Positions 4,341 through 63,355 of a stretch of 64,000 bases of DNA are shown here, one piece after another. This DNA comes from a candidate division WOR-3 bacterium. Lineage in GTDB: Bacteria; Hydrothermota; Tepidihabitantia; B3-TA06. The DNA is taken from assembly GCA_965649265.1 (NCBI GenBank), contig CBFGKC010000006.1, positions 114,975 to 178,974 of the forward strand. Direction: 5' to 3'. Both the position numbers and the translations under genes were made by a program. Within the stretch, counting starts at the first letter, position 1. Each line of letters begins with the position of its first letter. The notes under the pieces are model-generated. The model saw only the letters and a program-made list of their open reading frames with translations. It ran no database searches and was not told where the DNA came from.

Positions 4341-4659
4341 AACCGGATGTTCGCTCGCATTGAGTGGGGGAGAGGGCTTTTGTGAAGGCGAAGAAGGTGG
4401 TTCTAGTCAGTTAAACTTCACCGCCCCCTCCCCCTCCGGATACCGGTGGAATTTTTTGTGCCCGGGACGAATGAGGCGATTGCCTCGGCCCATGCGCCTC
4501 CCAGTCGCTGTTTGTCCCACTTCTGACCCACACTTTGACCGACTGCCGTAAGGGGCGGCTGACCCTCCTTCGGAGTGTTTGAAGTTTGCCTCGATTTCAT
4601 TTTTCAGTAGGCATACTTCCCCGCAATAATCGAAATTTCGCCCTGAATATGCCATGAAA

Positions 4660-4780
4660 AAAACCCAAAATTGGCCATTTTGTCCATCTTTTGTCCCACT
4701 TTTGTCCAGCTTTTTTTACCCCAAAATAGTCGCATTTTCCTCAAGAACGGACTACAATTTTGTGGGGATTCCCGTTTTTT
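4660..4780. repeat. Dispersed noncoding repeat, copy 1 (core TTTGTCCATCTTTTGTCCCACTTTTGTCCAGCTTTTTTT)
   Basis: The core is near-identical to 49613..49665 over about 55 nt. The flanks CCCCAAAAT...CAATTTTG(T/C)GGGGA are also shared with the 49592..49765 copy. No reading frame is conserved between the two copies. Confidence 0.55.
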
Positions 4781-15040: not shown

Positions 15041-15096
15041 GTGTTACGGGGGGGGGACGGGTGTTACGGGTGGGTGTTACGGGTGGCGTTACGGGG
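15041..15096. repeat. Short tandem repeat (GTGTTACGGG x4, the reverse complement of CCCGTAACAC) overlapping the rSAM stop codon
   Basis: The sequence reads gtgttacggg ggggggacgg gtgttacggg tgggtgttacggg tggcgttacgggg. The rSAM stop codon (TAA at 15089..15091, minus strand) lies inside the last unit. The same unit recurs at 48003..48081 and 58790..58830. Confidence 0.6.
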
Positions 15097-16688: not shown

Positions 16689-16717
16689 TGGTCAATATAC
16701 GGCTGATAGGGATGGTG

Positions 16718-17278: not shown

Positions 17279-17307
17279 GTTTTACTGTACCTCACTTTTC
17301 CGGACTG

Positions 17308-17865: not shown

Positions 17866-17929
17866 AAAATTCCTCCTTGACTGCGACTACTCCTGTTATA
17901 CAGTTGCAGGTGCAATAAATTCCCTTAAC

Positions 17930-18469: not shown

Positions 18470-18476
18470 GATACTG

Positions 18477-19016: not shown

Positions 19017-19031
19017 TGTGCCTCCGGTGAT

Positions 19032-19547: not shown

Positions 19548-19629
19548 GGTTCCTCCTTTCACTGTATTAAATATAATCAACTTGCTCGGATTGTCAATCC
19601 ATGAAAATCACCTGAAATCCTGGCAGGTG

Positions 19630-20726: not shown

Positions 20727-20745
20727 TCTGCCTCTCCTATCTCGT

Positions 20746-21288
20746 TTAATCTGGTTCAGTAATCACCAGTTCTAAAGATTCAATTTCAATTTGACCGGAA
20801 GAATTTTCTACCTCTAAGTATATCCATGTCGTTTCCGGCTCAAGGTCTCCAACGTAAAGTCGGCCGACTATTCTCTCCGAAGCGGCGTCGAATTTCCCGT
20901 CAATCGCCCGCATGGGGTAATATATTGTATCTCCATCCATTCTCATGCGGGCTGAGCTTATCGTGCTTTCGCCGCTGTAGTGATCGCTAATCTTTGCCGT
21001 GGCCTTGACGGTTACCGAATCGGCGCCCCTTGTAGGGTTAGGCCTTACGGAAAGTTTGGATAGTTCTATGAGGGGAGGGGGGGCGGGCTTGTAGCACATT
21101 ATGACGTCTTCCTTTGCTTCGAGCGAGAGAGCGCTCACGAGTGCCACGAAAAATCCGAGGAATGTGAGCTTCAACCATCTTGCCGCCCCGGGGAGGATGC
21201 GGCGTTCCTCGAATCCGGAAAACGTTCCGAAAAGCCTTCCGCCAATCCTTGCAAAAAAGTCTGCCAGGCGTTTTCTGAGTTCAGGCAT
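20746..21288 (-). CDS. Array paralog 4/12
   Basis: It reads MPELRKRLADFFARIGGRLFGTFSGFEERRILPGAARWLKLTFLGFFVALVSAL, then IMCYKP...PNPTRGADSVTVKATAKI. Confidence 0.6.
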   Translation of the reverse strand: MPELRKRLADFFARIGGRLFGTFSGFEERRILPGAARWLKLTFLGFFVALVSALSLEAKEDVIMCYKPAPPPLIELSKLSVRPNPTRGADSVTVKATAKISDHYSGESTISSARMRMDGDTIYYPMRAIDGKFDAASERIVGRLYVGDLEPETTWIYLEVENSSGQIEIESLELVITEPD

Positions 21289-21289
21289 A

Positions 21290-21859
21290 TCAATCCTCCT
21301 TATTCTCGTTGCTGTCCGCTTCCGGTGCGGTGATGATTAATTGCCTCCAGGTGCTTTCCGCGTTGCCTGAGTTTGTCCTCACCACTATGTAAATCCAGGT
21401 GGTCTCCGGCTTGTGATCCCCGACGTAGAGACGGCCTTCGACTGTTTCAAGGGTATCGCCGAACTTACCGTCAACCGCTTTCATCGGATATAAAAGGGTA
21501 TCTCCGGTAAGCTGCATAATTGCTTCGGAAACAGCGGTGTCACCTGAGCAATAATATGCAGATTCCAATTTTGCGGTTGCCTTGACTGTAACGGTGTCTT
21601 TTCCTGCAGTGGGGTTCGGTGTTGCCGAGACATCGAAGATACTTAAGTGAGGTTCCTCAATAGGCACGTAGCACATGATGATATCGTCGTCCGCCTTGAG
21701 CGCTGGCGCGCCCAGCAGGGTTACCAGCAATCCCAGAACCGAAAGCTTTAGCCATCTTGCCGGTCTGCGTAGGATACCGCGTTCCTCCAATCCGGACAGT
21801 ATCCCGAATAAGGAGCCGCCTATCCGTGAAGAGATGCGGGCCAGTAAGCCTTTTGTCAT
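21290..21859 (-). CDS. Array paralog 3/12
   Basis: It reads MTKGLLARISSRIGGSLFGILSGLEERGILRRPARWLKLSVLGLLVTLLGAPAL, then IMCYVP...PNPTAGKDTVTVKATAKL. Confidence 0.6.
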   Translation of the reverse strand: MTKGLLARISSRIGGSLFGILSGLEERGILRRPARWLKLSVLGLLVTLLGAPALKADDDIIMCYVPIEEPHLSIFDVSATPNPTAGKDTVTVKATAKLESAYYCSGDTAVSEAIMQLTGDTLLYPMKAVDGKFGDTLETVEGRLYVGDHKPETTWIYIVVRTNSGNAESTWRQLIITAPEADSNENKED

Positions 21860-22435
21860 CTACTCCTCCCTGGCAGCGCTCGAATCAGCTGCGAGCGAAT
21901 CAATCCTTGTTACGGTGTAGGACTGCCAAAGAATCTCTTCATCTTCTCTGGAACTCGTCACGTCTATAAAGAACCAGTGGGTGCCGGTATCCAGGTCGCC
22001 TGTGTAAAACATGGCCTCAAGAACCTCAAGAGTGTCGTTAAGCTTGCCGTCCACGGCCTTCATGGGAATCCTCAGGGTGTCACGCTGCCTGGAAAGCCAG
22101 GCGTTTCGGATGTAATTGTTCTCAAGGGTCGGGTCCAGAACTTTTGCAGTTACCTTTACTTTTACCGAGTCCGCTCCTCGAGTCGGATTTGGTGTGATGG
22201 ACACATCCGAAATCTTTACCTCCGGCATCCTCATGGCTACGTAACAGGTCTTAATTGTTTCTACCTCGGCGGAAAGTGCTCCGATGGCTGCGGTAAGAAA
22301 TCCAAGCAGTGAGAGCTTTAACCAGCGCGAAGCGCTGGGCACAATCCCGCGCTCTTCGAATCGCGACAGGAGTGAAAAGAGACCTCCTCCCAGCACTTCA
22401 AGAATCCTTACGACGAACCCTTTCGTTCTCGCCAC
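21860..22435 (-). CDS. Array paralog 2/12 (GTG start)
   Basis: The track ORF 21860..22654 carries a non-homologous 73-aa N-terminal extension. The paralog alignment starts at the GTG at 22435 (VARTKGFVVRILEVLGGGLFSLLSRFEERGIVP), preceded by GGTGGAG. The start lies 1 nt after the stop of paralog 1. The ectodomain reads KTCYVA...PNPTRGADSVKVKVTAKV. Confidence 0.55.
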   Translation of the reverse strand: MARTKGFVVRILEVLGGGLFSLLSRFEERGIVPSASRWLKLSLLGFLTAAIGALSAEVETIKTCYVAMRMPEVKISDVSITPNPTRGADSVKVKVTAKVLDPTLENNYIRNAWLSRQRDTLRIPMKAVDGKLNDTLEVLEAMFYTGDLDTGTHWFFIDVTSSREDEEILWQSYTVTRIDSLAADSSAAREE

Positions 22436-22436
22436 G

Positions 22437-23009
22437 TCACTCCACCTTTGTCGAATCAGTCCTGATAGAATCAGGCTCCGAGACTTCAAAATAAAACCAG
22501 CTCGCTTCCAGTGCATCCTGGGATGTCTGGACGAGCATTGAGATCGAGTACTGGCCCGGTTCAAGATTTCCAACGTAAACCGTACCCTCGAGCACCTCGA
22601 GCGTGTCGTCCATCTTGCCGTCAAGTGCTTTGACCTTGAACCTCGTCGTATCACCGTCCCAGGAGAGCCAGGCGTCCTTTATGAAGTTATCCTTGATATT
22701 CGAGTACATCACCTTGGCCTGGGCCTTCACTTTCACCGAATCCGCTCCCTTCGTGGTATCAGGGGTTACGGACTTCTCTGTTATGATGACGTCGGGAATC
22801 CTCGCGACGATGTAGCAGGTGACTTCCGGATCCCTGGCTTGAAGTGAGAGTGTCGCGACTAGCGAGGCTATGATTCCCAGGGTCGAGATCTTTATCCATC
22901 TCGCGGCACGCGGCATGACGCCTTTTTCTTCTATCATTGTCAGAAAATGGAAAATTGCATCTCCCAGTTTCCCTAACAGCCTGGATAAGAGGTTGCGTGT
23001 CTTGGCCAT
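22437..23009 (-). CDS. Array paralog 1/12 (first gene of operon)
   Basis: The ORF is trimmed to the ATG at 23009 (MAKTRNLLSRLLGKLGDAIFHFLTMIEEKGVMPRAARWIKISTLGIIASLVATL), preceded by AAAGGAG. The ectodomain reads VTCYIV...PDTTKGADSVKVKAQAKV. Confidence 0.6.
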   Translation of the reverse strand: MAKTRNLLSRLLGKLGDAIFHFLTMIEEKGVMPRAARWIKISTLGIIASLVATLSLQARDPEVTCYIVARIPDVIITEKSVTPDTTKGADSVKVKAQAKVMYSNIKDNFIKDAWLSWDGDTTRFKVKALDGKMDDTLEVLEGTVYVGNLEPGQYSISMLVQTSQDALEASWFYFEVSEPDSIRTDSTKVE

Positions 23010-23059
23010 CGTCGCTCCTTTAATTCTCAATACAAGAAAACATCTCAAATATTCCCCAC

Positions 23060-23088
23060 AATATAAGCCCCAAAAGACAGGTGTCAAG
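23060..23088 (-). promoter_or_regulatory. Candidate sigma70 promoter for the 12-paralog/rSAM operon
   Basis: On the minus strand it reads TTGACA-N16/17-TATATT (the plus strand shows tgtcaa at 23083..23088 and aatata at 23060..23065). It lies about 50 nt upstream of the first paralog's start. Confidence 0.4.
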
Positions 23089-28460: not shown

Positions 28461-29301
28461 CTGGAGAAAGTTCTTGCGGTCTTACATTTGACAAATGTCC
28501 GGTATTTTCGATAACCATTGCCGGGGAGGGTACACCGATCATTTTCAGGTTATTGGCGAGGGTTTTTCGCCTGTGAGCGAAACACTGCCTGACAAGCCTA
28601 GAGAAGGTTGCGGGGTCGTCGGGCCACAAGGGCTTTTCCAGCGGTTCGACTTTTATCGTTATCGAACGAACCTTGGGCACGGGCGCAAACGCGCGCGGGT
28701 CAATCTCAAAGAGTTTCTGGGTTTTCAGGAAAGCCTGCGCGACCACGGAAAGAGCCGAATAGTCATGAGAACCAAGCTGGGCCGTCAACCGCTCGGCAAA
28801 CTCCGCCTGAACCGTAAGCACGGCTTTCTTCCAGAATTTCCTCCTGTCGAGCAGCCAGAAGAGTATCTCCGCCGACAGGTGATACGGAAGATTTCCCAGT
28901 ACCCCGTCCACACATCCATAGCGATCAATATCAAGTTCTCTGACATCCGAAAGGAAAAGCTCGAGATTCTTGTGGAGGTCGGCAAGAACCCGGAGAGTCG
29001 GGAAGCATGTCTCGTCCACTTCCACCGCTACTATTCTCGATACCCTGTCGACAATCAAGCGGGTCAGCTCGCCGGTTCCCGCACCTATCTCGATTACCGT
29101 ATCTTCTTTTTTTGCGCCAAGACTGTCAACGATTCTTTCACCCACCTCTTTCCATCGCAAGAAGTGCTGACCCAGGCGCTTCTTGGGGTGAACATGGATA
29201 ATACCCCCATCTAATTTACTGCGTAAATTAGATGGGGACCCGCTATCCACGGGCACGGTTCTGGTACTTGAATCTCCGTGCAAGGTTTTCCTCTTACCCA
29301 A
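28426..29301 (-). CDS. rsmA: 16S rRNA (adenine1518-N6/adenine1519-N6)-dimethyltransferase
   Basis: The KsgA motifs are present (LGQHFL, VIEIGAGTGELT, LGNLPYHLSAEIL). The ORF has an N-terminal extension of about 40 aa, so the true start may be internal. Confidence 0.8.
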   Translation of the reverse strand: MGKRKTLHGDSSTRTVPVDSGSPSNLRSKLDGGIIHVHPKKRLGQHFLRWKEVGERIVDSLGAKKEDTVIEIGAGTGELTRLIVDRVSRIVAVEVDETCFPTLRVLADLHKNLELFLSDVRELDIDRYGCVDGVLGNLPYHLSAEILFWLLDRRKFWKKAVLTVQAEFAERLTAQLGSHDYSALSVVAQAFLKTQKLFEIDPRAFAPVPKVRSITIKVEPLEKPLWPDDPATFSRLVRQCFAHRRKTLANNLKMIGVPSPAMVIENTGHLSNVRPQELSPGDYVKLIDIIA

Positions 29302-30046
29302 GGAACAGCTCCTTGCCGTTGCGTTCGGTAAGTGCCGCTATATCCTCAGCAGGTTTGACTAGAATTTCGGCCGCCTTCTCCACAACATATCGGACATATG
29401 CGGGTTCGTTACGTTCCCGGCGATGGGGTTCGGGCGTCAGGTAGGGACAATCGGTCTCCACTAGAAGCCGCTCGAGTGGTGCATTGCCTAGCCAGCGTCG
29501 GGTTCTCAGAGCGTCATAAGTTATGGTTCCGTTCAGACCGAGGTAGAAGCCGAGTTCGACTATTCTGTCCACCTGATTCGAATCGGCGGACACCGAATGG
29601 AACACACCCCAGTAGTAGCCGATTTCCTCTACCGTTCGTATGGTATCGTCCATCGCCTCCCTGGTGTGAATAACTATCGGTAGCTTAACGGACTCGGCGA
29701 GTTCTATCTGCTCGGCAAACACCCGGCGCTGGACGTCGCGCGGGGAGAGGTCCCTGTAGAAATCTAACCCTATTTCTCCAATGGCCTTGACCTTCTCGTG
29801 TCTTGTCAATTCCTCAAGTCTGATTAAATAGTCAGGAGGTGTGTTACGGGAGTCGTGAGGATGATAACCCACGGCAACCCATACCCCGTCGTGTCTTTCC
29901 GCGAAGCCAATGGCATCCTCGCACGATCGCAGGTCCCAGCCCACCTCAAGCATGAGCGTGACACCCTCCCCCCTGGCCCGTTCTAAGACTCTCTCCCTGT
30001 CATTAGCGAAACGTTTGTGGCATATATGGGTGTGGGTATCGAACAT
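29294..30046 (-). CDS. tatD: TatD-family metal-dependent hydrolase/DNase
   Basis: It starts MFDTHTHICH and carries the conserved His/Asp/Glu residues of TatD (LMLEVGWD, AIGEIGLDFY, IVIHTREA, LVETDCPYL). It overlaps rsmA by 8 nt. Confidence 0.8.
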   Translation of the reverse strand: MFDTHTHICHKRFANDRERVLERARGEGVTLMLEVGWDLRSCEDAIGFAERHDGVWVAVGYHPHDSRNTPPDYLIRLEELTRHEKVKAIGEIGLDFYRDLSPRDVQRRVFAEQIELAESVKLPIVIHTREAMDDTIRTVEEIGYYWGVFHSVSADSNQVDRIVELGFYLGLNGTITYDALRTRRWLGNAPLERLLVETDCPYLTPEPHRRERNEPAYVRYVVEKAAEILVKPAEDIAALTERNGKELFLG

Positions 30047-32929: not shown

Positions 32930-33373
32930 GGTTCCTCCTTTGGTTTTGGCATACGTTGGCAGTATAGACAGCCGGTTAAAGTTGTCAATACGGAATTTTC
33001 CGGGTGTACTTAGGTAGAATAGAGGATGTCCTCCTTATCGAGAGGGGGTACTACCCCTCTTCGTTCTTGGATGAGGCTGCGCTTCAAGGAAGCGCCGGGT
33101 GAGGGTTCCTCACTAACTGGAAGGGGGGAGGGGGAATCACTTTCTTCCTACCTTGGTGGAGGGGGCGGGGCGACCTCGTAGGGGCTTACGTGGATGCTTC
33201 TGCATCCGCTTCGCGTTAGGTGAGCCCGCAAAAAAACGGGCTGACCTGAAGGTCGGCTCCTGCACTTTGCGAGGCTGCGCCCGTTAAAGAATTTGATATT
33301 GCAGAGTAAACCTAATTGCTTTGATAATCCTCGATTATCTTCCCATGATCGAAACAAATGTCACCCCAAGTAA

Positions 33374-33793
33374 TTACTTCGTAATTTCTTGGGGACCCCG
33401 ATTGATGTAATCACGGATGATTGTTGAGTGATCAAACGTAATCTGTTCCGGTAATGTATCCAGCTTAAAGACGCGGGCGAGCTTCGCGTCGTCGCCTTCG
33501 CGTAACACACCCTTGCCGTCGGCGGTGAAGACGACGGATACGGTATGGAAGCGGGGATCGCGCGAGGGTTCGGAGTAGACGTGGAACTGCTCGAGATTGT
33601 CCAAATCGAGTCCGGTCTCCTCCTTCATCTCCCTGCGCACGGCCTGCTCGACCGTCTCGCCTATCTCGACGAACCCGCCCGGCAGCGCCCACCCCGGGGG
33701 AGGGTAGCGTCTCTCGACAAGGATAATCCCGCCTTCGTACCGGATGATGCAGTCAACGGTCAGGTATGGGGTTTTGGGCGGCGACCAGGTCAT
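33374..33793 (-). CDS. NUDIX hydrolase
   Basis: The Nudix box is present (LPGGFVEIGETVEQAVRREMKEETGL). Confidence 0.8.
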   Translation of the reverse strand: MTWSPPKTPYLTVDCIIRYEGGIILVERRYPPPGWALPGGFVEIGETVEQAVRREMKEETGLDLDNLEQFHVYSEPSRDPRFHTVSVVFTADGKGVLREGDDAKLARVFKLDTLPEQITFDHSTIIRDYINRGPQEITK

Positions 33794-33810: not shown

Positions 33811-33957
33811 ACAATCGTTTTGTTGCCGCAATGACACGGTCATTGCACTCCACACGGACTTGTTGCCGCAATGACACGGTCATCGCACTCCACACGGACT
33901 TGTTGCCGCAATGACGCGGTTATCGCACTCCACACAGACTTTGTTGCCGCAATGGCG
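33811..33957. repeat. Tandem 40-bp repeat x3.6, each unit with an 8-bp-stem hairpin (GCAATGAC-acg-GTCATTGC)
   Basis: The units tgttgccgcaatgacacggtcattgcactccacacggact sit at 33811, 33851 and 33891, with a partial fourth. The copies degenerate from 5' to 3'. It lies between the polA stop and the NUDIX start. Confidence 0.7.
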
Positions 33958-33998
33958 CGGTCATAATCGATCTGCGTAGTTCTTGAATCAAATAATCC

Positions 33999-42650: not shown

Positions 42651-43584
42651 ACTGGGTTGGGCCCTCCTCCTCATCCTGCTTCTCATACTCGTTTCTCTCT
42701 CCCTCCTTATCGGTCCGGCGGGGCTTTCCTTCGGCCTGATTCTGTCTCGCCTGCCGAGAACCTTTCTCACACTCTTTGCAGGCGGCATCCTCGCTCTCGT
42801 CGGCGCGGCGCTTCAGGGGCTTTTGGAGAATCCGCTCGTCGATCCCTACATCATAGGCTCCTCATCAGGCGCAGGTGTCGGTGTTGCCCTTGCCTTGCTC
42901 ACCGGCTGGACATCGGTGTACGGCAGACCCTTGTTCGCATTCGCAGGCGCAATGGGTGCGCTTCTTCTCGTATACTTCTTTGCCCGCATGAAGGGCCGTA
43001 TCTCACGTCTCTCCCTTATCCTATCCGGGGTCGCGGTCGGCTTCGTGGGTTCGAGTCTCGTAATGATTCTTATGGTGCTTTCCCGCTCCGAACTCTCCCA
43101 GATCATCTACCTCCTTATGGGTTCCACCAACATCATCTTCACCCCTCAGGAGTTCTGGACCTTTGTTATCTCCGCATTTCTCTCCATAGTCCTTTGCACC
43201 TGGCTTATCACGCGCTGGCGCTCACTCGACATACTTTCCGCAAACATCGAGTCCGCCGAATCGCTCGGGGTCAACACCCAGCGACTGACGACCGAGGTTT
43301 TCATCATTTCAGCCGTGCTCGTGGGCGTTGTGGTCGCGTTTGCGGGCGCCGTCAGCTTCGTGGGTCTGATAGTTCCCCACATCGCCAGATTCATATTCGG
43401 TCCAAGGCATTTGCGCGTGCTGCCTGCAAGCTTTCTTGCCGGCGCGTCCTTGTTACTTCTTTCAGACATCATCCTCAGGCTTTTTGCCATGCTCACGAAC
43501 GTCTACCTGCCTTTGTCCGTCATCACCACTCTCGCAGGCGTGCCGTTCTTTCTTTTCATCATGAGAAGGAAGTCGAATGTTTGA
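42637..43584 (+). CDS. ABC transporter permease, FecCD/BtuC family
   Basis: It has about 9 TM segments. The FecCD-type conserved loop GAxxxxxGxxQ is present (AGGILALVGAALQGLLENPLVDPYIIGSSSGAG). Confidence 0.75.
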   Translation: MMRARLGWALLLILLLILVSLSLLIGPAGLSFGLILSRLPRTFLTLFAGGILALVGAALQGLLENPLVDPYIIGSSSGAGVGVALALLTGWTSVYGRPLFAFAGAMGALLLVYFFARMKGRISRLSLILSGVAVGFVGSSLVMILMVLSRSELSQIIYLLMGSTNIIFTPQEFWTFVISAFLSIVLCTWLITRWRSLDILSANIESAESLGVNTQRLTTEVFIISAVLVGVVVAFAGAVSFVGLIVPHIARFIFGPRHLRVLPASFLAGASLLLLSDIILRLFAMLTNVYLPLSVITTLAGVPFFLFIMRRKSNV

Positions 43585-44344
43585 GGTTCGTTCTCTTTCC
43601 TTTTCCTATCCCAGACGCCCGCTGTTCGAGAACCTTTCCGTCGGCATCGAAAAAAACGAGTTCGTCTCGGTCGTCGGTCCTAATGGGGCGGGCAAGAGCA
43701 CGTTCGTCAAGCTTCTGGCTAGGCTTCTTTATCCCTCATCCGGCAAGATACTGTTCGAGAAGCGATCCCTCGCCTCTTATCCCCGCCGCGAACTCGCAAG
43801 GCGAGTGGCGTACGTTCCGCAGGAGAGCCATTTTTCCCTCGACTTCACCGTTCTCGAGACCGTGCTTCAGGGACGCCATCCCTATCTGGGCGCGCTCGAA
43901 TTGTATCGCTCTTCCGACTACGCGCTCGCGCGCTCGTCGCTCGAAAGGCTCGGGATACTCCATCTCGCCGGGAAGAACATCAACAATATCTCCTCTGGTG
44001 AGCGCCAGCTTGCCGTCATATGCCGCTCGCTCGTGCAGGAGCCGTCGATCATCCTTCTTGACGAGCCCCTCAATCACCTCGACCTGCACCACCAGCTAGA
44101 AGTCCTTGTCCTTCTCAGGTCCCTTAACCGGGAGGGGATAGGTATCGTTCTCGTCGCCCATGACCTCAATCACGCAGCGCTCTGCTCGAACCGCATGCTC
44201 ATCTTCGCCCAGGGCCGTCTTGCGGAGGATAATTCTCCAGACGTTCTTCTCAATCCGGATATCATCGAACGCTACTGGGGCATCAGACCTCTCGAAGGCC
44301 GCCACCCTGAAACCGGCAAGCGCCAGATATTCCTGCCACTGTAG
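43577..44344 (+). CDS. ABC transporter ATP-binding protein (BtuD/FepC-like)
   Basis: The Walker A motif is GPNGAGKST. The signature/Walker B is LSSGERQLAVICRSLVQEPSIILLDEPLNHLD. It overlaps the permease gene by 8 nt. Confidence 0.8.
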   Translation: MFEVRSLSFSYPRRPLFENLSVGIEKNEFVSVVGPNGAGKSTFVKLLARLLYPSSGKILFEKRSLASYPRRELARRVAYVPQESHFSLDFTVLETVLQGRHPYLGALELYRSSDYALARSSLERLGILHLAGKNINNISSGERQLAVICRSLVQEPSIILLDEPLNHLDLHHQLEVLVLLRSLNREGIGIVLVAHDLNHAALCSNRMLIFAQGRLAEDNSPDVLLNPDIIERYWGIRPLEGRHPETGKRQIFLPL

Positions 44345-44644
44345 ATTACCCCAAAATAATACTCCGTATTCTTTTGGGGACCCCGTAAGACACGAAAGCG
44401 CGAATCCCACACAAGCCCCTTCAGATTTTCCTCAGCCCTCCTCAGCCCCCCTCACTCTCCCCTCAACTCGCCTCAGTTCCCCTCAGCCTTCCTCGGTTCT
44501 TTACGTATTGGCATCGCGCGTGATTTGTAAATTTGTCGTCGATCGCGAACAATCAATCTCTTAATTATTTCTAACCCTTTTATTTGTCGCGGCTGATTAT
44601 TTTTATGAGGATGTGAATCGCAGGCGTAGTTGTGGAAGAAGGGG

Positions 44645-47998: not shown

Positions 47999-48002
47999 AT
48001 AC

Positions 48003-48081
48003 CCCCCGTAACACCCCCCCCCGTAACACCCCTCCCGTAACACACCCCCGTAACACACCCCGTAACATGCTCCGTAACACG
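48003..48081. repeat. Short tandem repeat, CC(C)CGTAACAC x6
   Basis: The unit cgtaaca sits at 48007, 48022, 48036, 48049, 48061 and 48073, separated by C-rich spacers. The array lies immediately after the transporter stop at 47998. Confidence 0.65.
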
Positions 48082-48294
48082 CCAACGTCATCCTGAGAAC
48101 CGCAGATGCGGGGCGAAAGGATCGCCTTCAGAAGGCAGTTTCTTTGAACACATGGGATCATTTATGTCTAAGGCGATGGCTTTGCTTGCTCGAAGCAGCC
48201 GTGCAAAGACACCCTCGTCCCACTTTCCCAGAGGGCAGGGGGTGTCCCACTTCGATAGGGGGGAGGGGGGGATTAATGTTTTGAGGGGGTCAGG

Positions 48295-48996
48295 CTAGTG
48301 AATCACCACTAACTTTGAGGTGTAGTCAATGTAGAACGAGCTGTCGGGAACGATGAATCTCGTAAAATAGATGCCAGCAGGCAAGGTCGAGAAGTCTTTC
48401 TGTATTGAGTGTGAACCTGCGCAGTAATTACCACTTAGTATTGTCTCGATTAACGCTCCCCGGAAATCGTAGAGAGCCAGGTGAACTACCATGGGTTTCG
48501 GTATCGCGTAGTTCAAACCGGCAGTTCCTGAGACTATTGAAGGGAAGTGCGGCGGTCTTTCTAACCGCAACTTTCGCGATGCGGTGTCGTTTCTTGCAAC
48601 GGTATCGTATGGATTCGAGACCCGCGCGAAAATCATGAAGGAATCAACGTCTTGAGAAGAGAAAGGCTTGTGAGAGTAGACGACCGTCTTTCCGGGCGCA
48701 AGCGCGTTTACGTACAACGTGTCTGTGTAAACCACCTGGTTTGTGGTAAGAGATGTTATCGTGAAGTAAAAATCGGCATAGGTGTGATGCGAGCTGAAAC
48801 TCTCTACGGTGCATCCGATCTTGATCTTACTATCAGGATACAAGTCATAGGCATAAAGACTACCAGCATAATTGATACTTGTTATCCAGAGGTCAAGGCT
48901 GTCGCCTGCCTGCAAACCTCTCTCAGGCGTGTTCGCTGCATTCATCGCGCTTGCTGAGACAAGAAGAAGTGTCGCTGTCAGAATTTTATTTCCCAT
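48295..48996 (-). CDS. Secreted protein with T9SS CTD
   Basis: The signal peptide is MGNKILTATLLLVSASAMNA. The C-terminus is AGIYFTRFIVPDSSFYIDYTSKLVVIH. Confidence 0.5.
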   Translation of the reverse strand: MGNKILTATLLLVSASAMNAANTPERGLQAGDSLDLWITSINYAGSLYAYDLYPDSKIKIGCTVESFSSHHTYADFYFTITSLTTNQVVYTDTLYVNALAPGKTVVYSHKPFSSQDVDSFMIFARVSNPYDTVARNDTASRKLRLERPPHFPSIVSGTAGLNYAIPKPMVVHLALYDFRGALIETILSGNYCAGSHSIQKDFSTLPAGIYFTRFIVPDSSFYIDYTSKLVVIH

Positions 48997-49141
48997 TCGG
49001 TTTCATATCCTCTCCATTTTGAAGCCGCGGGTATTCCCACTCTGGATAATCAGCATATTCAATAACGCCGTTCAGTCAACCTTGCAGGCTCGACGTTAAC
49101 GCCTCAAGCGTTTGCGTGAGTCAGGTCAGCCCGAATGGTGC

Positions 49142-49535
49142 GGGCCGACCTAAAGGTCGGCCCCTACGTTGTGTTAGTCATAAGGTGCATTTGTACCCTT
49201 CGTTCGCCCTTCGGTGGCTTCGTAGCCACTCGGGGTTGCATGTGCGGAACTACGTTCCACGAAGACTATTTCCAATTAAGGAGTATCGCCAGGGGTGATT
49301 TCGTCATCTTCGATTGCGGAAGGAACTTCCGCCCATGCGGATTCCATCCGCTCGCTCGCCAACGACAATCTAATGAATCCCCCTTGCCTTTCGGGCGTTC
49401 CCCCTTAATAAGGGGGATGTTACGGCCCCCCTTCGATAAGGGGGGAGCGGGGGGATTCTCCCGGTCTTCGTCTCTCGTTTAATGGGAGGGAAAGTCAACC
49501 CCTCCTCTTAATCCTCTTCGCAAGGGGGAGGAGGT
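49142..49535. other. Cluster of perfect GC-clamped hairpins in noncoding DNA
   Basis: The hairpins are GGGCCGACC-taaa-GGTCGGCCC (49142..49163), GTGGCT-tcgt-AGCCAC (49214..49229), CCCCCTTA-at-AAGGGGG (49400..49416), CCCCCCTT-cgat-AAGGGGGG (49426..49445) and CCTCCTC...GAGGAGG (about 49501..49535). Confidence 0.55.
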
Positions 49536-49591
49536 TTTACTTTCAGTCGGTAAATTTCCATAATTTTCCTCCCGAGACCGTCCGTTTTTTG

Positions 49592-49765
49592 CCCCCAAAA
49601 TGCCCTCAAAACCCCGGTTTTGTCCATCTTTTGTCCCACTTTTGACCAGCTTTTTTTTCACGAAAATTGCCCCAAAATGCCCGATTTGTCCATCTTTTGA
49701 CCATCTTTTGTCCCACTTTTTTTATGCCCCACAAAATTGCTGCGCAATTTTGCGGGGACCCCATT
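49592..49765. repeat. Dispersed noncoding repeat, copy 2 (TTTGTCCATCTTTTGTCCCACTTTTGACCAGCTTTTTTT plus internal partial duplication)
   Basis: The core matches 4666..4727. It carries an extra half-copy (TTTGTCCATCTTTTGACCATCTTTTGTCCCACTTTTTTT) and ends in the hairpin CCCCACAAAATTGC-tgc-GCAATTTTGCGGGG followed by ACCCC. Confidence 0.55.
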
Positions 49766-49803
49766 AGAGAGATATGAATTCTAAAACATAAGTGATTGTA
49801 AAA

Positions 49804-50007
49804 GAATATCTTAAACAAATTCAAGTCGCCTTATTGGCGTCTGAGGGATGAAATCCCTGGGCTTAAGTTATTCTATAACTTCAAGATTGAAATAACTTAA
49901 ACAAGAGGTGTCACTTATTGTGACTTATGAAACAGAGTTTCATCGGCTTAAGTTGTTACATAACTTTATAATTTGAATAACTTAAGCAAATCGCCGCCAC
50001 TTATTGT
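49804..50007. repeat. Three tandem modular palindromic units (about 65 bp each)
   Basis: Each unit has a long hairpin bounded by GCTTAAGTT...AACTTAAGC. A second hairpin follows with a conserved loop CTTATTG and a variable stem (GTCGCC / GTCAC / GCCGCCAC). A small third hairpin completes each unit. Confidence 0.55.
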
Positions 50008-50098: not shown

Positions 50099-51097
50099 CT
50101 ATTCGTTGTATCGGATGTCGTAATCCCTCGATGGCTTCGTCTCCTGCTCTGGGAACAGGTCGGTATGCACCAAAATTCCGTCCGCAAGCAGCGCCGAACC
50201 CTGCGAGTCGTGACCGTCGACTTCGTATAAGTCGCCTGATCCCGGAGTATACGCGTCATCGAGGTCGGCCTTGGTGTACACCGCTAAGAGTTCCTTGGCC
50301 TTCTGCCACGAAACGGAGCCGTGCTCCTCGCCCTGCATTGCTTCAACTATATAGGATTCCAATAACTTATGCCAATAACTCTTCATCATCGTGTGGGAGC
50401 TGAAGAGGTCGATGCCCACAACCTGGTCGCCCACGCAAACGATTACGCCTTTCATGTTTGTATTGTTTGCCGCAAGGCCTTCGAGCTTTTTCCAGTATTT
50501 GTCGCGGTCACCTTTGTAGGAACTGGAAGTGTAAATATCGTTAAATGCGCCGGTTGATGAAGTCTCGCCCATCACTTTTTCCTGGTTTTCCGCGACCTTG
50601 TTCCAGACTTCGGACTGGCTCTTGTTCGCGCGCGCGTTGGCCCTGACAGACGGAGAAACGTTGATGTCGGCCTTCGCGAACTCCTTTGAGGAACCCGACC
50701 AGCGTCCGTGCTCGGTGCAGTACACGGAAACCTCCAGCCAGCCTGAACTTGGAGGAAGGATCAGGTCGTTTTCAATCATCCGGTCCTGCTTTGCGCCGAG
50801 TATTACCTCGCCCGCCATCGCGAACACCGGGTTAGAACTTTTGTTCTTTACGAGGACGGTGTTAACCTCGCCCTCGTTTTTTTCCTTGACGACCACAAGA
50901 CCCTTATCAAGCGCGTCCTTGAGGATCATAAAGCTTTCCGCGTCGCCGGTGTAAGAGAGGGGGTAGATACGTAAGTTCTCGGCTTCAGCATAGTTAAGAA
51001 TCGTGACCTTGCCAGGAATGGCGTTTACCACAGACTCGTCTCCTGAGGTGGACCCCAGGAGAGCGAGCGCTAAAGGTATGAGAAATTTCATTTCCAA
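50099..51097 (-). CDS. Hypothetical secreted protein
   Basis: The signal peptide is MEMKFLIPLALALLGSTSG. The product is 332 aa with no T9SS CTD and no recognisable domain. Confidence 0.45.
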   Translation of the reverse strand: MEMKFLIPLALALLGSTSGDESVVNAIPGKVTILNYAEAENLRIYPLSYTGDAESFMILKDALDKGLVVVKEKNEGEVNTVLVKNKSSNPVFAMAGEVILGAKQDRMIENDLILPPSSGWLEVSVYCTEHGRWSGSSKEFAKADINVSPSVRANARANKSQSEVWNKVAENQEKVMGETSSTGAFNDIYTSSSYKGDRDKYWKKLEGLAANNTNMKGVIVCVGDQVVGIDLFSSHTMMKSYWHKLLESYIVEAMQGEEHGSVSWQKAKELLAVYTKADLDDAYTPGSGDLYEVDGHDSQGSALLADGILVHTDLFPEQETKPSRDYDIRYNE

Positions 51098-51738: not shown

Positions 51739-51827
51739 TTCATCCTCCTTTGCATTGTTATACATCTTGTCCCAAGGTTTATTCCGCTCTCCATGATTTG
51801 TAATCGTGAATCGCATAAGCTTATGCA

Positions 51828-52178
51828 AATGCGCCCCCGGCGCTAGCCCTCCTCAGACCCCCTCAGACCCTCCTCAGACCCTCCTCAGACTATCCTCAGA
51901 CTATCCTCAGACTATTGGGGGCTCAACACCTTGCAGAATTCTATTCTGCGCATGCGCCTCCGGCGCTAGCCCTTTGGATAAGTAGAAATGAAATGGCGGA
52001 AGCGCAGCTTGCGCCCAGCGCCTCCGGCGCTCCTCCTTAGATCGGTAATAGTGAAATCGCAGAAACCCCATGGGCTTCTGCGCATGCGCCTCCGGCGCTA
52101 GCCCTTTGGATAAGTAGAAATGAAATGGCGGAAGCGCAGCTTGCGCCCAGCGCCTCCGGCGCTAGCCCTGACTCAACA
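51828..52178. repeat. Composite noncoding repeat element, locus 2 (6x CC(C/T)xCCTCAGA units, then 2.5 copies of the GCGCCTCCGGCGCT-containing module of about 85 bp)
   Basis: The CCTCAG-type units lie at 51848..51917. The modules at 51946..52030 and 52086..52170 are near-identical to 14766..14850. It sits in the divergent region between tonB and the SBBP gene. Confidence 0.65.
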
Positions 52179-52260
52179 CACAGTCGAAACAATCTGAATA
52201 GCATCTTCCTAAGTCATCTATAATATGCGGAGCTTTTTTTGTAAGTATTTATGCCGCATA

Positions 52261-52288
52261 TTGACAAATTACCCTTACATCGTATCAT
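52261..52288 (+). promoter_or_regulatory. sigma70-like promoter (TTGACA-16-TATCAT) preceded by an 8-bp inverted repeat overlapping the -35 element
   Basis: ttgaca is at 52261..52266 and tatcat at 52283..52288. The inverted repeat ATATGCGG (52223..52230) / CCGCATAT (52254..52261) flanks it. An AAGGAGGAG Shine-Dalgarno site precedes the ATG at 52314. Confidence 0.45.
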
Positions 52289-52313
52289 TTTGCAAACGAG
52301 AAGGAGGAGTATT

Positions 52314-53723
52314 ATGAAACCTATGTGTTTTCTTTCAATAACGTTTTCGTGTATATTTTTTTTCCTCTCCACGGTCGTACGCGCCGAGGATGTTCCCGTT
52401 AACGTCTGGAACAAGGTCTATGATTCAGGCAAGAACGACGTACCTTACGCTATTGCGGTGGATGATTCGGGCTACGTTTACGTCGCGGGACTTTATTACA
52501 ATGGTGAGAACAGCGATTTCAGAACCATAAAATTCGACCCGGACGGGGAGATTGCATGGAACAAAACATTCGGGCCTGCAACCGAAGATATTGCCTGGGC
52601 GGTTGCGGTCAGCAGTACGGGTTCGGTATACGTTGCAGGTGAATCCAAGGATGCCTACGAACTGGTCAAATATGACTCGAAAGGAACCGAACTCTGGAAC
52701 AAATCATACGAATCCCAGTATAAATATTCGGACGCGGCGTACGGGATAGCCCTGGATGAGGATAACGGTTTTTGTTACCTTACCGGCAAGGTTCACAACA
52801 CGGCTACCGGAAACAACGATTACAGGACAATAAAATGCGATACATCCGGCAACAAGAAATGGGACAACAAATACGATTCGGGCGCAGATGACTGCGCATA
52901 CGGGGTGACAGTAGACAAAGACGGTAACGCTTACGTGACAGGCGGCATCAACTCCGACACGAGTGTGATGACCGTCAAGTATGGTCCTACCGGAAATACC
53001 GTCTGGAAAAAAACATACTCCGGAGGCGATAAAAATGTTGGATATTCCATAATAACAGATAATGGCGGTTCTTTTTATGTCGCCGGAATGTCGAAAAGCA
53101 GTGCCGGGAATATGGATTATCGCACCGTCAAATACGATCTTGCCGGAAATATGAAATGGGAGAAGCTATATGGATCGAGTAACAATGAGTTTGCCTGTGA
53201 TGTTGCGCTTGATGACAAGGGTTTCTTGTACGTAACAGGTTCATATTACGAGGGGTCATATCCTTTCTCCAGAACCATGAAGTACGATTCTCTTGGAAAC
53301 ATCCAGTGGGAGTTTGCTTATGATCAAGGCTCGAGGGAAGAAAGCGAGGGCGTAGCCGTGGATGCTGACGGGAACATCTACATCATCTGTAAATCTTACA
53401 ACGGCAAGGATAACGATTTCAGGCTTTTAAAATATCGGCAGTCTTCAGGGATAGCGGAAACGTTTTTTAAACCTGAAGATATGAATCTGGAACTTGAAAA
53501 TAAAGGATCCTTTTGGACTGTAGCCTACTCTCTTGTGGATTCCGGCCCAATAGAGCTGTCGATTTTTGATGTCAGAGGTACGAGGGTTGCAACGTTAGAT
53601 CACGGTTTTCGAAGCTCAGGCACACACTCTCTTGTCTGGATTCCGGAGGTAAATGGGGTATATTTCCTTAAGCTTTCGAAAGGGGCGAGCGTCGAAAACA
53701 GGAAAGTAGTGGTAATTCGCTAG
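52314..53723 (+). CDS. Secreted SBBP-type beta-propeller repeat protein with T9SS CTD
   Basis: The ORF is trimmed to the ATG at 52314 (MKPMCFLSITFSCIFFFLSTVVRA). The repeats follow the pattern YDSG..D.AYAIAVDDSGYVYVAG......DF.TIKYD.DG...W. The C-terminus is GVYFLKLSKGASVENRKVVVIR. Confidence 0.65.
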   Translation: MKPMCFLSITFSCIFFFLSTVVRAEDVPVNVWNKVYDSGKNDVPYAIAVDDSGYVYVAGLYYNGENSDFRTIKFDPDGEIAWNKTFGPATEDIAWAVAVSSTGSVYVAGESKDAYELVKYDSKGTELWNKSYESQYKYSDAAYGIALDEDNGFCYLTGKVHNTATGNNDYRTIKCDTSGNKKWDNKYDSGADDCAYGVTVDKDGNAYVTGGINSDTSVMTVKYGPTGNTVWKKTYSGGDKNVGYSIITDNGGSFYVAGMSKSSAGNMDYRTVKYDLAGNMKWEKLYGSSNNEFACDVALDDKGFLYVTGSYYEGSYPFSRTMKYDSLGNIQWEFAYDQGSREESEGVAVDADGNIYIICKSYNGKDNDFRLLKYRQSSGIAETFFKPEDMNLELENKGSFWTVAYSLVDSGPIELSIFDVRGTRVATLDHGFRSSGTHSLVWIPEVNGVYFLKLSKGASVENRKVVVIR

Positions 53724-58787: not shown

Positions 58788-60295
58788 TGCCCCGTAACAC
58801 CCGTAACACACCCAATCCCTCCCATAACACCTCCCAAACTCTTGAGGAAACCTCTGGTTTAAAGCCTACTGTGGAAGATAAACCCAAGGGTATAATCGAT
58901 TACCAGACGATTACCTCTGTTTCTGGTCCACTCCTTCTCGTTGAGGGAGTCGAAGGAGTCAAGTATGAGGAGCTTGTTGAGATATTCCTTCCCTCAGGCG
59001 AACGCCGCAGGGGAAGGGTGCTTGAGGTTAACCAGGACAAGGCGCTCATACAGATATTTGAGGGTTCCTCGGGAATCGAGATAGGCCAGACAAGGGTACG
59101 CTTTCTTGGCAAGGGCATAACCTTGGGGGTCTCCGAGGAACTTCTCGGCCGCGTATTCGACGGCCTGGGCCGCCCGCGCGACAGCTCACCCGAGCTTATC
59201 CCTGAAGAATTTCGCGACATCAACGGTCTTCCAATCAATCCCTTCGCTCGCAGCTACCCCAACGAGTTTATCGAGACAGGCATCTCCGCTATAGACGGAT
59301 TGAACACGCTAGTACGTGGGCAGAAGCTTCCTATCTTCTCCGGTTCCGGTTTGCCGCACAACCGCATGGCGGCTCAGATAGCGCGTCAGGCAAAAGTACT
59401 CGGCGCAGCGGAGGAGTTTGCGGTGGTGTTCGGCGCAATGGGCATCACGTTCGAGGAAGCCCAGTTCTTTATCGATGATTTCCGCCGTACAGGGGCCCTT
59501 GAGCGCGCGGTACTCTTTCTTAACCTTGCGGACGACCCTGCAATCGAGCGAATCGCGACACCGCGTGTTGCGTTCACCGCAGCGGAGTATCTCGCCTTTA
59601 CGAAGAATTATCACGTCCTCGTTATCCTCACAGACCTGACCAATTACTGCGAGGCCCTTCGTGAGATATCCGCCGCCCGAAAGGAGATTCCCGGTCGGCG
59701 CGGTTACCCCGGCTATCTATACACCGATCTTGCCACCATCTACGAGCGATCAGGCCGCATCAAGGATTCGACCGGTTCCATAACCCTCGTTCCCATTCTC
59801 ACCATGCCCGAGGACGACAAGACCCACCCTATTCCAGACCTTACCGGGTATATCACCGAGGGGCAGATCATCCTTTCCCGCGTACTCAATAACAAGAACG
59901 TCGCTCCGCCGGTAGACGTACTCCCCTCCCTCTCCCGTCTCAAGGACAAGGGTATAGGCAAGGGAAAAACTCGCGAGGATCACGCGGATTCGTTTAACCA
60001 GCTTTACGCCGCGTATGCACGAGGCAAGGAAGCCCAGGAACTGGCCGTGATTCTCGGTGAGGCGGCGTTGACCGATATCGACAAGCTTTACATGAAATTT
60101 GCCGAGGCGTTCGAGCGCCGCTACATTTCCCAGGGCGAGTACGAGGCTCGCAGCATCGAGGAGACACTTGATTTGGGTTGGGAGCTTTTGACCAGTCTTC
60201 CGCGTTCGGAGATGAAGCGCGTTCGGGACGAAAACCTTGCAAAGTATTACGATACCGCGTTCGCAAAATTCCAGAAGACCGGGGAGAAATCATAA
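58787..60295 (+). CDS. atpB: V-type ATP synthase subunit B
   Basis: The product is 502 aa and closely follows the B-subunit pattern ([20 protein letters not shown]). It starts in an ATGA overlap with atpA. Its first roughly 30 codons are an N-terminal extension ([15 protein letters not shown]...) that is partly encoded by CCGTAACAC repeats. Confidence 0.85.
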
Positions 60296-62599: not shown

Positions 62600-63355
62600 A
62601 TGCGAAGGATTGCCATAGTCAATCAAAAGGGCGGAGTCGGTAAGACTACCACGGCAATAAACCTTTCGGCGGCCCTGGCAGTAGCGGAGAAGCGGGTATT
62701 GCTTATTGATGTTGATGCCCAGGCGAACGCCACTTCGGGACTCGGTCTTGAAAATCGCGAATCCAACCACTCCACATACGAGATTTTCATTAATCCTTCC
62801 AACATCAAGGAGACTATCCGCGCGACCTCCGTTAAATATCTGGATGCGGTGCCTGCATCCCTGGATCTTGCAGGTCTTGAGATTGAACTCATCGATACGG
62901 AGGGCAGGGAGTCTAGACTTCGACAGGCAATGTCTTACATTGATTCGTACGATTACGTTATAATGGACGCCCCCCCCTCCCTCGGTCTCCTGACGCTTAA
63001 CGCTCTTGTTGCCGCAGACAGTGTTCTCATTCCGGTTCAGTGCGAATACTATTCCCTTGAGGGCATAAGCAAGCTCACTGATACTCTTAACAGGGTAAGG
63101 AGCTTTCTTAATCCGTCCCTCGAAATTTTCGGAGTCCTCCTGACCATGTATGACCCAAGAACGAATCTGGCCGATCAGGTTGCGGAGGAGATTAGAAAAC
63201 ATTTCCCTGAAAAAGTTTTCAGGGCGATGATTCCGCGAAACGTGCGTCTTGCCGAAGCGCCCAGTTTCGGCCAGACCATTCTTCATTACGACATCAATTC
63301 CCGCGGCGCCCAGGCTTACCTTGAGCTTGCGAGCGAGGTGATGGCTCGTGGCTAG
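62600..63355 (+). CDS. parA: Chromosome-partitioning ATPase ParA/Soj
   Basis: The deviant Walker A motif is present (IAIVNQKGGVGKTTTAINLSAALA). Confidence 0.9.
   Translation: MRRIAIVNQKGGVGKTTTAINLSAALAVAEKRVLLIDVDAQANATSGLGLENRESNHSTYEIFINPSNIKETIRATSVKYLDAVPASLDLAGLEIELIDTEGRESRLRQAMSYIDSYDYVIMDAPPSLGLLTLNALVAADSVLIPVQCEYYSLEGISKLTDTLNRVRSFLNPSLEIFGVLLTMYDPRTNLADQVAEEIRKHFPEKVFRAMIPRNVRLAEAPSFGQTILHYDINSRGAQAYLELASEVMARG

Follow-up and report, generated by a model that had tools for sequence, protein, structure and literature searches.

A lineage-specific, modular interspersed DNA repeat with arrays of one-helical-turn units in Candidatus Stahlbacteria and candidate division WOR-3

In model bacteria, short interspersed repeats such as the repetitive extragenic palindromic (REP) sequences and their mosaics (bacterial interspersed mosaic elements, BIMEs), BOX, ERIC and Correia repeats shape transcription, mRNA stability and genome plasticity. 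The BOX elements of Streptococcus pneumoniae have the modular structure boxA-boxB(n)-boxC (PMC3049150). Here we describe a modular repeat found in a 64,000-nt stretch of a candidate division WOR-3 bacterium (contig CBFGKC010000006.1, positions 114,975 to 178,974; hereafter the window). Two loci of the window, called copy 1 and copy 2 and comprising three 66-nt units, belong to a modular family of interspersed DNA repeats that is specific to the Ca. Stahlbacteria/WOR-3 lineage and present at dozens of intergenic sites. The element is noncoding, its arrays are devoid of RNA structure, and the pairing of an associated stem is kept by compensatory changes. Our search of the literature found no description of comparable repeats in WOR-3 or Stahlbacteria.

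The near-identical core that an earlier note on this DNA had reported at both loci is real: the 27-mer TTTTGTCCATCTTTTGTCCCACTTTTG has two perfect matches (4678-4704 and 49618-49644) and a third one, with two mismatches, at 49695-49721, the chance expectation being 0. A repeat search of the window showed that this core is part of a 66-nt repeat present in three copies (4653-4718, 49593-49658 and 49659-49724), with pairwise identities of 76-79%. A profile built from the three retrieved them with nhmmer E values of 7e-19 to 2e-18, and in the whole window it found beyond them only one degenerate piece, at 4511-4535. Copy 2 does contain a duplication, as the same note had stated, but what is doubled is the whole 66-nt unit (Tandem Repeats Finder, TRF: period 66, ×1.9) rather than half of the element.

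Each 66-nt unit starts with a C/A-rich leader, continues with three head-to-tail 11-bp units of the type TTTTG-W-CC-A-N-C and ends in a T-run. TRF recognized the core as an 11-bp tandem repeat, with 3.4 repeats at 4678-4714 and at 49618-49654, and 2.6 at 49685-49713. Local alignment widened the likeness between the two loci to 4602-4734 and 49541-49674 (score 101, against 26.8 ± 2.9 for shuffles); the similarity 5' of the leaders is marginal, its score being reached by 12 of 300 shuffles.

A scan of one genome per species with a degenerate two-unit pattern returned at least 106 stretches, compared with about one chance match estimated in random sequence of that size. At least 62 of these at least 106 matches listed came from six metagenome-assembled genomes (MAGs) labelled Ca. 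Stahlbacteria (placed by NCBI in the phylum Ca. Stahliibacteriota) or candidate division WOR-3, and a narrower pattern matched 15 metagenome contigs. Neither set of matches included the window; its best match among those listed, WOR-3 MAG095, shares gene order and 74% identity over 4 kb with it and therefore represents a relative. The element had been proposed to be dispersed and multi-copy, a proposal made to depend on the existence of further copies; such copies are abundant in related genomes by both the genome and the metagenome scans, with at least 62 loci in the six MAGs.

The loci fetched for closer analysis (numbered with the prefix L) contained 83 arrays of 2-9 units each, most commonly 4-5. 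Over 313 units the consensus was TTTTG-W-CC-A-N-C, with only positions 6 and 10 free: T occupied each of positions 1-4 in 95-98% of the units, and G5, C7, C8, A9 and C11 were high in information. The detection rule pre-sets part of this consensus, but not A9 (88%) or the freedom at position 10. The arrays are also polar. In 73% of them the first unit carries GTCC, with ATC or ACC tails, and most arrays close with a G(A/T)CCAGC unit before the T-run; units of the GGGT and GGGG types are found inside arrays.

When sites were printed in array orientation, the order of modules was constant: leader, 11-mer array, T6-T8 run, then at many sites a hairpin (ACCCCA...GGGGACCCCG) and at some a 30-nt box. 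Three kinds of leader alternate, namely the G-poor, CAAAA-rich type of the window, a AAATTTGCATTTTGA...GCGACGCAGTCGCGC type and a GCCGTCAGCTGT-repeat type. Of 68 sites, 16 had the box, as TTGTGACGAGTGCAATGTAAACCTGACGAGTT; the window lacks the 30-nt box GTGACGAGTGCNATGTAAACCTGACGAGTT, which often follows arrays elsewhere. If the gene behind the element has the same orientation, there is a TTGACA-N17-TAnnAT promoter of good quality between them, at about half of the sites only.

The sites are intergenic and flank unrelated genes, which from their N-termini, judged by eye, we take to include MetRS-, SmpB-, fumarase- and urocanase-like ones, as well as a tRNA gene at one site. We had considered a regulon and discarded the idea, the downstream genes being functionally unrelated.

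The arrays are predicted to be strongly curved. In a dinucleotide wedge model, whose degrees are approximate, the controls behaved as expected (92-143 degrees for phased A6 tracts, 3 degrees at 16-bp spacing), and of 12,785 overlapping window 76-mers the two most bent reached 134 degrees (start 49581) and 97 degrees (start 4711), against a 99th percentile of 64. The three window units gave 90-134 degrees, versus 28-30 ± 15 for shuffles. By the same model, 59 of 65 arrays elsewhere reached the 99th percentile of their own locus, and 42 of the 65 exceeded every non-array segment. The CAAAA-type leader carries on the 11-bp phasing (TRF, 49590-49611). With their period of 11, the arrays have the features by which phased A-tracts are recognized, i.e., at least three A/T tracts of at least 4 nt, about 10-11 bp apart.

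The terminal hairpin had been thought to be shared by both copies. The motif CAATTTTG(T/C)GGGGA is indeed present in both, but only copy 2 folds significantly: its hairpin at 49727-49757 reached -18.5 kcal/mol on the plus strand and -21.7 on the minus strand (z about -3.4; -3.3 on the minus strand), the latter with 14 unbroken pairs and a GCA triloop. In copy 1, the equivalent stretch (4719-4767) folded no better than shuffles (z -0.5 on plus, -0.3 on minus).

In the family, 57 of 100 GGGGAYCC anchors bear a CCCC...GGGG hairpin, of the form CCCC-N23-GGGG-ACCCC. An ungapped alignment of 37 distinct 31-nt hairpins had 92.3% of its cells paired, as compared with 42-48% in slid controls; the fraction is somewhat inflated because the set (57 of the 100 anchors) was chosen for pairing, which does not affect the compensatory pattern of 103 cells changed on both sides, in 8 of the 14 pairs. 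The four C-G pairs at the end of the stem and the flank GGGGU/ACCCC do not vary among these hairpins. Pairing is better on the complement of the T-rich array strand (34 G-U pairs and 40 mismatches, versus 9 and 65; 25 G-U gained), where the loop is C-GNA-G in 28 of the 37. GCGNAGC is the consensus of an extraordinarily stable DNA mini-hairpin (PMC13037366, PMC3201870), and this match hints at folding as single-stranded DNA; probably, the hairpin folds as single-stranded DNA or as RNA of the complementary strand. No U-run follows it on either strand in either window copy, so it is no canonical intrinsic terminator. The hairpin also occurs on its own, in either orientation and often 4-57 nt past stop codons. 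It is thus a short imperfect palindrome, multi-copy and extragenic, as REP/BIME sequences are.

Table 1. Components of the two copies, related features of the window, and contigs with two array loci
Feature	Position	Strand	Basis or remark
Degenerate three-unit array GTTTGTCCCAC TTCTGACCCAC(A) CTTTGACCGAC	4510..4543	+	Array scan; nhmmer 4511-4535, E = 0.089; 135 nt upstream of copy 1
Copy 1 leader CATGAAAAAAACCCAAAATTGGCCA, A-tracts roughly array-phased	4653..4677	+	Sequence; within 66-nt repeat; nhmmer E = 8e-19
Copy 1 array, three 11-bp units TTTTGTCCATC TTTTGTCCCAC TTTTGTCCAGC	4678..4710	+	Array scan; TRF period 11 ×3.4
T7 run ending copy 1 array, next in-phase T-tract	4711..4717	+	Sequence; most family arrays end in a T-run
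Decayed copy 1 hairpin module CCCCAAAAT ... ATTTTGTGGGG + ATTCCCG, ~30-nt loop insertion	4719..4774		Sequence; folding
Copy 2a leader TTTTTTGCCCCCAAAATGCCCTCAAAACCCCGG, 11-periodic at 49590-49611	49585..49617	+	Sequence; TRF period 11 ×2.0
Copy 2a array TTTTGTCCATC TTTTGTCCCAC TTTTGACCAGC	49618..49650	+	27-mer match; array scan; TRF
T8 run after array 2a	49651..49658	+	Sequence
Copy 2b leader CACGAAAATTGCCCCAAAATGCCCG	49659..49683	+	66-nt tandem duplication; TRF period 66 ×1.9
Copy 2b array ATTTGTCCATC TTTTGACCATC TTTTGTCCCAC	49684..49716	+	27-mer match; array scan; TRF
T7 run after array 2b	49717..49723	+	Sequence
REP-like hairpin CCCCACAAAATTGC-TGC-GCAATTTTGCGGGG + constant ACCCC flank	49727..49762	-	Folding; member of hairpin family
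Stand-alone hairpin, same family	29205..29237	-	57 nt after stop of TatD gene 29294-30046 (-)
Stand-alone hairpin, same family	33364..33394	-	Overlaps stop of NUDIX gene 33374-33793 (-)
Stand-alone hairpin, same family	44349..44379		5 nt after stop of ORF 43577-44344 (+), distance from ORF list
Contigs with two co-oriented array loci	Window (4678, 49618); SOJW01000057 (L031, L049); SOJW01000035 (L046, L075); SOJW01000020 (L077, L102)		

Relative to the downstream gene, 31 arrays had the same orientation and 28 the opposite one; relative to the upstream gene, counted by site, 28 were co-oriented and 17 opposed (p = 0.14). A control repeat family, the CCGTAACAC arrays, gave 15:1 co-orientation with the upstream gene in the same genomes and with the same gene calls, meaning that the method detects polarity where it is present. 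Sites fell into 13 convergent, 11 divergent and 17 tandem ones, with an enrichment of convergent-gene sites (13/41, background 40/237; odds ratio 2.3, p = 0.03). A replication-linked polarity was rejected, array orientation being unrelated to GC skew or coding-strand bias at 60 loci.

At an orthologous locus upstream of the fumarase-like gene, read by eye, all four genomes have arrays of consensus units, and at fourfold sites of that gene L038 is 54-60% identical to the other three. Two genomes with 89% identity at fourfold sites already differ in the number and types of units, in the kind of leader and in whether a hairpin is present. Identical 31-nt hairpins occur at different loci of one genome (e.g., L045/L088 and L022/L092), and for at least 10 sites the contig ends no more than 300 nt away. 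The family is therefore not a neutral relic: its unit sequence is kept at high fourfold divergence, by selection or by continual copying, while its architecture changes fast.

The reading we favor, with a probability of about one half, is a role at the DNA level, in which the element would act as a static bend and a putative protein platform and be subject to slippage and inter-locus copying. One T4 tract per helical turn, always on the same face, would produce a static bend of roughly 90-130 degrees per 66-nt unit, and the invariant G5, C7, C8, A9 and C11 could make the array a head-to-tail platform for the cooperative binding of a putative sequence-specific protein, either a host architectural protein or an enzyme copying the element. 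Slippage would lengthen and shorten the arrays, and copying between loci would homogenize them. The hairpin alone is often found at gene 3' ends, like REP elements.

Several points weigh against such a role. The binding protein is hypothetical, and a filter for HUH motifs among 512 locus ORFs matched no mobilizing enzyme to this element. The bend comes from a model calculation with Bolshoy/Trifonov parameters, and the hairpins were selected for their pairing. The AAATTTGCATTTTGA-type leader is, by eye, about 8-periodic and not helically phased, so selection for curvature cannot explain every module. The strict unit consensus could come from continual copying between loci, with no host function. 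Finally, arrays were co-oriented in four of four contigs with two distant loci, 40-49 kb apart (a small sample, among the matches listed), and shared orientation on one contig is not predicted by a purely symmetric DNA-shape role.

The main rival, which we consider possible though clearly less probable than a DNA-level role, is a purely selfish, non-autonomous repeat (BOX/REP/MITE-like, the last standing for miniature inverted-repeat transposable elements) that would have no host function, would use transposition or gene conversion to spread and slippage to expand, and would bend as a by-product. It would account for the insertion in either orientation next to unrelated genes, for the excess between convergent genes (an argument made for the pneumococcal BOX, RUP and SPRITE elements, PMC3049150), for the identical hairpins at separate loci, for the rapid turnover of modules among close relatives, and for the sites near contig ends, which are expected of assembly-breaking repeats. 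RAYT/REP systems do exist in the phylum: one RAYT was found among the 512 locus ORFs, at L025 126-674 (WOR-3 MAG Zod_Metabat.887; PF01797, 29.9 bits), with hundreds of homologues named 'REP element-mobilizing transposase RayT' in their source. However, this RAYT is flanked by REPs of its own (CGCACCCTGAGAGGGTACGCTAC; L025 84-112 and 676-935), which differ from the present hairpin, as do the REPs of three homologues, and neither kind occurs in the window. L025 also has a cluster of six more CGCACCCTGAGAGGGTACGCTAC REPs (5415-5699), which ends about 90 nt 5' of an 11-mer array; the 11-mer arrays can thus stand in one intergenic mosaic with classical REPs. We found no transposase among the window ORFs scanned, no terminal inverted repeats bracketing both window copies (the composite has a fixed head-to-tail polarity), and no clean target-site duplication or empty site; a hairpin present in L004/L035 and absent in L088 has CCCCG on both flanks. 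Arrays also persist at orthologous loci despite about 40-46% fourfold-site divergence. The earlier suggestion of a mobile miniature element is loosely supported at most: it agrees with the fast turnover and the identical hairpins at different loci, but not with the lack of inverted repeats, clear target-site duplication and window transposase. A rather more speculative idea, which we rate somewhat lower still, is that the arrays are chromosomal sites of a lineage-specific, filament-forming DNA-binding protein and mark an unknown nucleoid-organizing or segregation system; one subunit would sit on each helical turn of pre-bent DNA, at the dozens of intergenic sites, and the REP-like hairpin might be a copying or anchoring module.

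Known initiators and partition proteins bring us to a very unlikely alternative, whereby the arrays would be DnaA-titrating clusters or centromere-like, ParR-type sites. In DnaA oligomer arrays, 9-mers lie head to tail 2 bp apart, and plasmid R1 parC has 11-bp direct repeats; the arrays resemble both in geometry, with head-to-tail, one-turn spacing suited to cooperative filaments, as also in the DnaA-box arrays of oriC. The unit TTGTCCACC matches the actinobacterial DnaA box, TTGTCCACA, at 8 of 9 positions. Yet the commonest units, TTGACCAGC and TTGTCCAGC, break the DnaA-box consensus at 2-3 positions, the GGGT/GGGG units misfit, and the arrays sit at dozens of places on the chromosome that have no cognate gene close by: a search with a single query sequence found no dnaA in 121 fetched loci or in the window, and no par or rep genes lie beside the window copies. 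A plasmid iteron or phage site was likewise rejected, as the plasmid collection gave one weak Leptospira match (E = 3e-3) and the phage collection none.

At the RNA level, the least improbable proposal, itself unlikely, is a terminator in which leader and array on the T-rich strand serve as a Rho-utilization (rut) site and the hairpin as a pause site. Such a site would have more C than G, one YC per 11 nt, no structure, and about six to eight repeats for the Rho hexamer. RhoTermPredict looks for a 78-nt stretch with C/G > 1, cytosines every 11-13 nt, no structure and a pause hairpin at most 150 nt away (PMC6407284), and the window copies show these formal features: C/G is 2.75-3.0 in the best 78-nt stretch (the window's 99th percentile) with a C every 11 nt, the sequence is essentially unstructured (-10.9 kcal/mol over 141 nt), a hairpin follows within 150 nt downstream, and copy 1 comes after a co-oriented gene. 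The family as a whole fits less well. Pooled over 69 arrays, C/G was 1.64, exceeding 2 in 32%; the 28 versus 17 upstream co-orientation is inconsistent; 11 sites lie between divergent genes; and the real upstream neighbor of copy 2 (48295-48996) is on the other strand. Given the modest family-wide C/G and the misfit of orientations, the proposal stays a minor one.

The earlier note had suggested a small regulatory RNA gene family or a mobile element, and the former is now very improbable. A strong hairpin does end copy 2, promoter-like hexamers (9/12 matches) lie 20-25 nt 5' of both leaders (4601-4630 and 49536-49564), and there is the marginal extra similarity upstream of the leaders. However, these hexamers are weak and within chance expectation, and no promoter-terminator pair frames the element, all matches being at chance level. 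Leader plus array folded no better than shuffles on both strands (z ≥ -0.44), the hairpin of copy 1 is decayed, and neither strand has a U-tail after the hairpin. Length varies with 2-9 units, orientation is split 31:28, unrelated leader modules interchange at orthologous loci, and Rfam gave no match at gathering score, with noise only at E ≤ 5. Taken together, the element is probably not RNA-level at all. As for a small-protein gene, its likelihood is negligible. Two ATG-started ORFs, 4654-4842 (62 aa) and 49600-49767 (55 aa), run through the core in one common frame and share FCPSFVPLL[ST]SFF, and the 66-nt duplication preserves the frame; the previous claim that no reading frame is shared was hence not strictly correct, even if its conclusion that the element is noncoding holds. 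Neither ATG is preceded by a Shine-Dalgarno sequence, whereas neighboring genes in the lineage show AGGAGG; each forward frame is open in only 35-40% of 65 other arrays; unit numbers modulo 3 are uniform (20, 22 and 23 arrays); and the products diverge completely outside the repeat.

The window itself is ordinary chromosome, with polA, a V-type ATPase operon, hisS, ksgA, tatD and a NUDIX gene. Copy 1 lies between the convergent genes 2652-4340 (+), SBBP-like with a type IX secretion system (T9SS) tail below the TIGR04183 cut-off, and 4886-7207 (-), whose tail is above it. Copy 2 is within a 1.1-kb intergenic patchwork, between 48295-48996 (-), which has no family match, and the ARPP-1 gene 50099-51097 (-); the nearest T9SS-tail gene is 2.5 kb away. 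The reported placement of each copy next to T9SS cargo genes accordingly applies to copy 1 and fails for copy 2, flanked by ARPP-1 and a gene of unknown function. At least four window genes pass the tail cut-off and several more are just below it, so closeness to such genes is expected by chance. The link of the element to T9SS cargo genes is coincidental, and elsewhere it flanks unrelated genes.

The patchwork around copy 2 contains further modules. A '+' ORF co-oriented with copy 2, 49135-49482, is built of repeat modules and has no Pfam match; part of this spurious-looking ORF is a hairpin GGGCCGACC-loop-GGTCGGCCCCTAC (49137-49165), found near arrays also in L043, L101 and L109. GC-rich hairpins CCCCC(T)-TTNATAA-GGGGG, followed by GGGGGATT..., occur at 49378-49534, 48240-48290 and 4366-4434 and at many loci (e.g., L064, L069 and L014); as they recur 5' of CAAAA-type leaders, this mosaic probably includes them as a further module. 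At 49855-49990 there are two imperfect, AT-rich hairpins, each about 45 nt long (GCTTAAGTTATT...AATAACTTAAGC), after the ARPP-1 stop on the minus strand and before copy 2.

The 30-nt box that sometimes ends the element is conserved, as TTGTGACGAGTGC(A/G)ATGTAAACCTGACGAGTT, and holds two TGACGAGT direct repeats 20 nt apart. It stands directly after arrays or hairpins, often 5' of a sigma-70-type promoter, including one for a tRNA gene (L004, L006, L022, L038, L046, L064, L074-L076, L082, L088, L090, L101, L102 and others).

A second tandem-array family, the one used above as a control, consists of (C)CCGTAACAC(C) repeats with a period of 9-14 and a C/G of 4-8, located in the window at 15033-15096 (C-rich on the minus strand), 48001-48080 (+) and 58791-58830 (+), with about 16 more arrays in L004, L020, L031, L088, L101, L115 and others. 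In 15 of 16 cases their C-rich strand has the orientation of the upstream gene, with the array often starting at most 10 nt past the stop, and one array sits between the V-ATPase A and B genes. In its strong polarity relative to genes this family differs from the 11-mers, and it may be a 3'-UTR or rut-like signal.

Other C-rich, G-poor intergenic arrays have a period of 10-11 nt (CCCTCCTCAGA ×6.1 and CCTCAGCCCC ×5.8; 51847-51912, 44430-44488 and 14670-14700), showing that the genome carries several unrelated repeats of about one helical turn. Repeats of 64-132 nt (GCGCCTCCGGCGCT...GGATAAGTAGAAATGAAATGGCGGAAGC...) are in tandem at 51809-52169, 5' of 52251-53723, and appear again at 14720-14855; the copies 52076-52163 and 51944-52031 are 100% identical. 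A 40-nt tandem repeat (TTGTTGCCGCAATGACACGGTCATCGCACTCCACACGGAC; ×3.6, 93% identity) occupies 33820-33964, just 3' of the polA stop (33999), with a related 34-mer at 62983-63016. Lastly, 16113-23087 (-) comprises a tandem series of some ten to twelve ORFs (about 175-265 aa each, at intervals of about 545-610 nt) that have in common a 51-nt segment (61-76% identical); they adjoin a radical SAM/SPASM gene (15089-16111), three that were tested had no Pfam match, and they may represent a multi-copy substrate or paralogue array.

Outside WOR-3, 11-bp arrays at at least 44 loci (Clostridia, Bacteroidaceae, Pseudomonas and others) were considered for membership of the family and set aside, as they seem to be tandem repeats of an unrelated kind. 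Among them, TTTTGTCCCAC-type 11-mers, two to three in a row, were seen in Clostridia, Bacteroidaceae, Moraxellaceae and others (L001, L012, L100, L015, L018, L103 and others). In Clostridium sp. ASF356 they lie between aroA and what we take, from N-termini read by eye, to be a phage-type block (methylase, amidase, holin-like), which suggests a prophage end.

Irrespective of its function, the element has an unusual design: since the minisatellite unit equals one helical turn, a change in copy number keeps the phase and would only lengthen the static bend. If the arrays are read by a protein, they are direct bait sequences for finding it; if not, they offer a clean natural case of selfish DNA making strongly curved intergenic DNA. 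In practical terms, the family accounts for assembly breaks in these MAGs, and TTTTGWCCANC arrays together with CCCC-N23-GGGGACCCC hairpins can serve as a lineage marker for contigs.

Compared with phased A-tract bent DNA of the kinetoplast type, the element has the same arrangement of tracts, with T4-T8 every 11 bp on one helix face and the largest predicted bend in the window. It differs from the diffuse A-tract periodicity of prokaryotic genomes (PMC3940949, PMC3431218, PMC4132750) in being made of exact tandem repeats, with conserved non-A/T positions, discrete unit types and a mobile-looking mosaic structure.

The closest parallels are with BOX and REP/BIME. Like BOX, the element is modular, its end modules being fixed and its internal tandem units varying in number, is intergenic in either orientation, and is over-represented between convergent genes and beside functionally unrelated ones. 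However, its internal unit is 11 bp instead of 45 nt, its end modules are unpaired and form no long stem-loop, its array is helically phased T-tract DNA, and its lineage belongs to another phylum; no likeness in sequence was evident by eye, no search for boxA/B/C homology having been made. With the REP/BIME sequences of Enterobacteria and Pseudomonas it shares an imperfect palindrome of 31-33 nt, constant at its ends and variable in its stem, which is multi-copy, often just after stop codons, and combined into BIME-like mosaics. It departs from them in that neither the RAYT of L025 nor its three homologues had the present hairpin beside them, that there is no conserved 5' GTAG-type tetranucleotide, and that the hairpins keep one orientation to the arrays, with no alternation. 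The element is not a classical MITE and is not tied to T9SS; its best-supported description is that of a lineage-specific, BOX/BIME-like mosaic repeat with an array predicted to be strongly bent and with sequence-constrained units.

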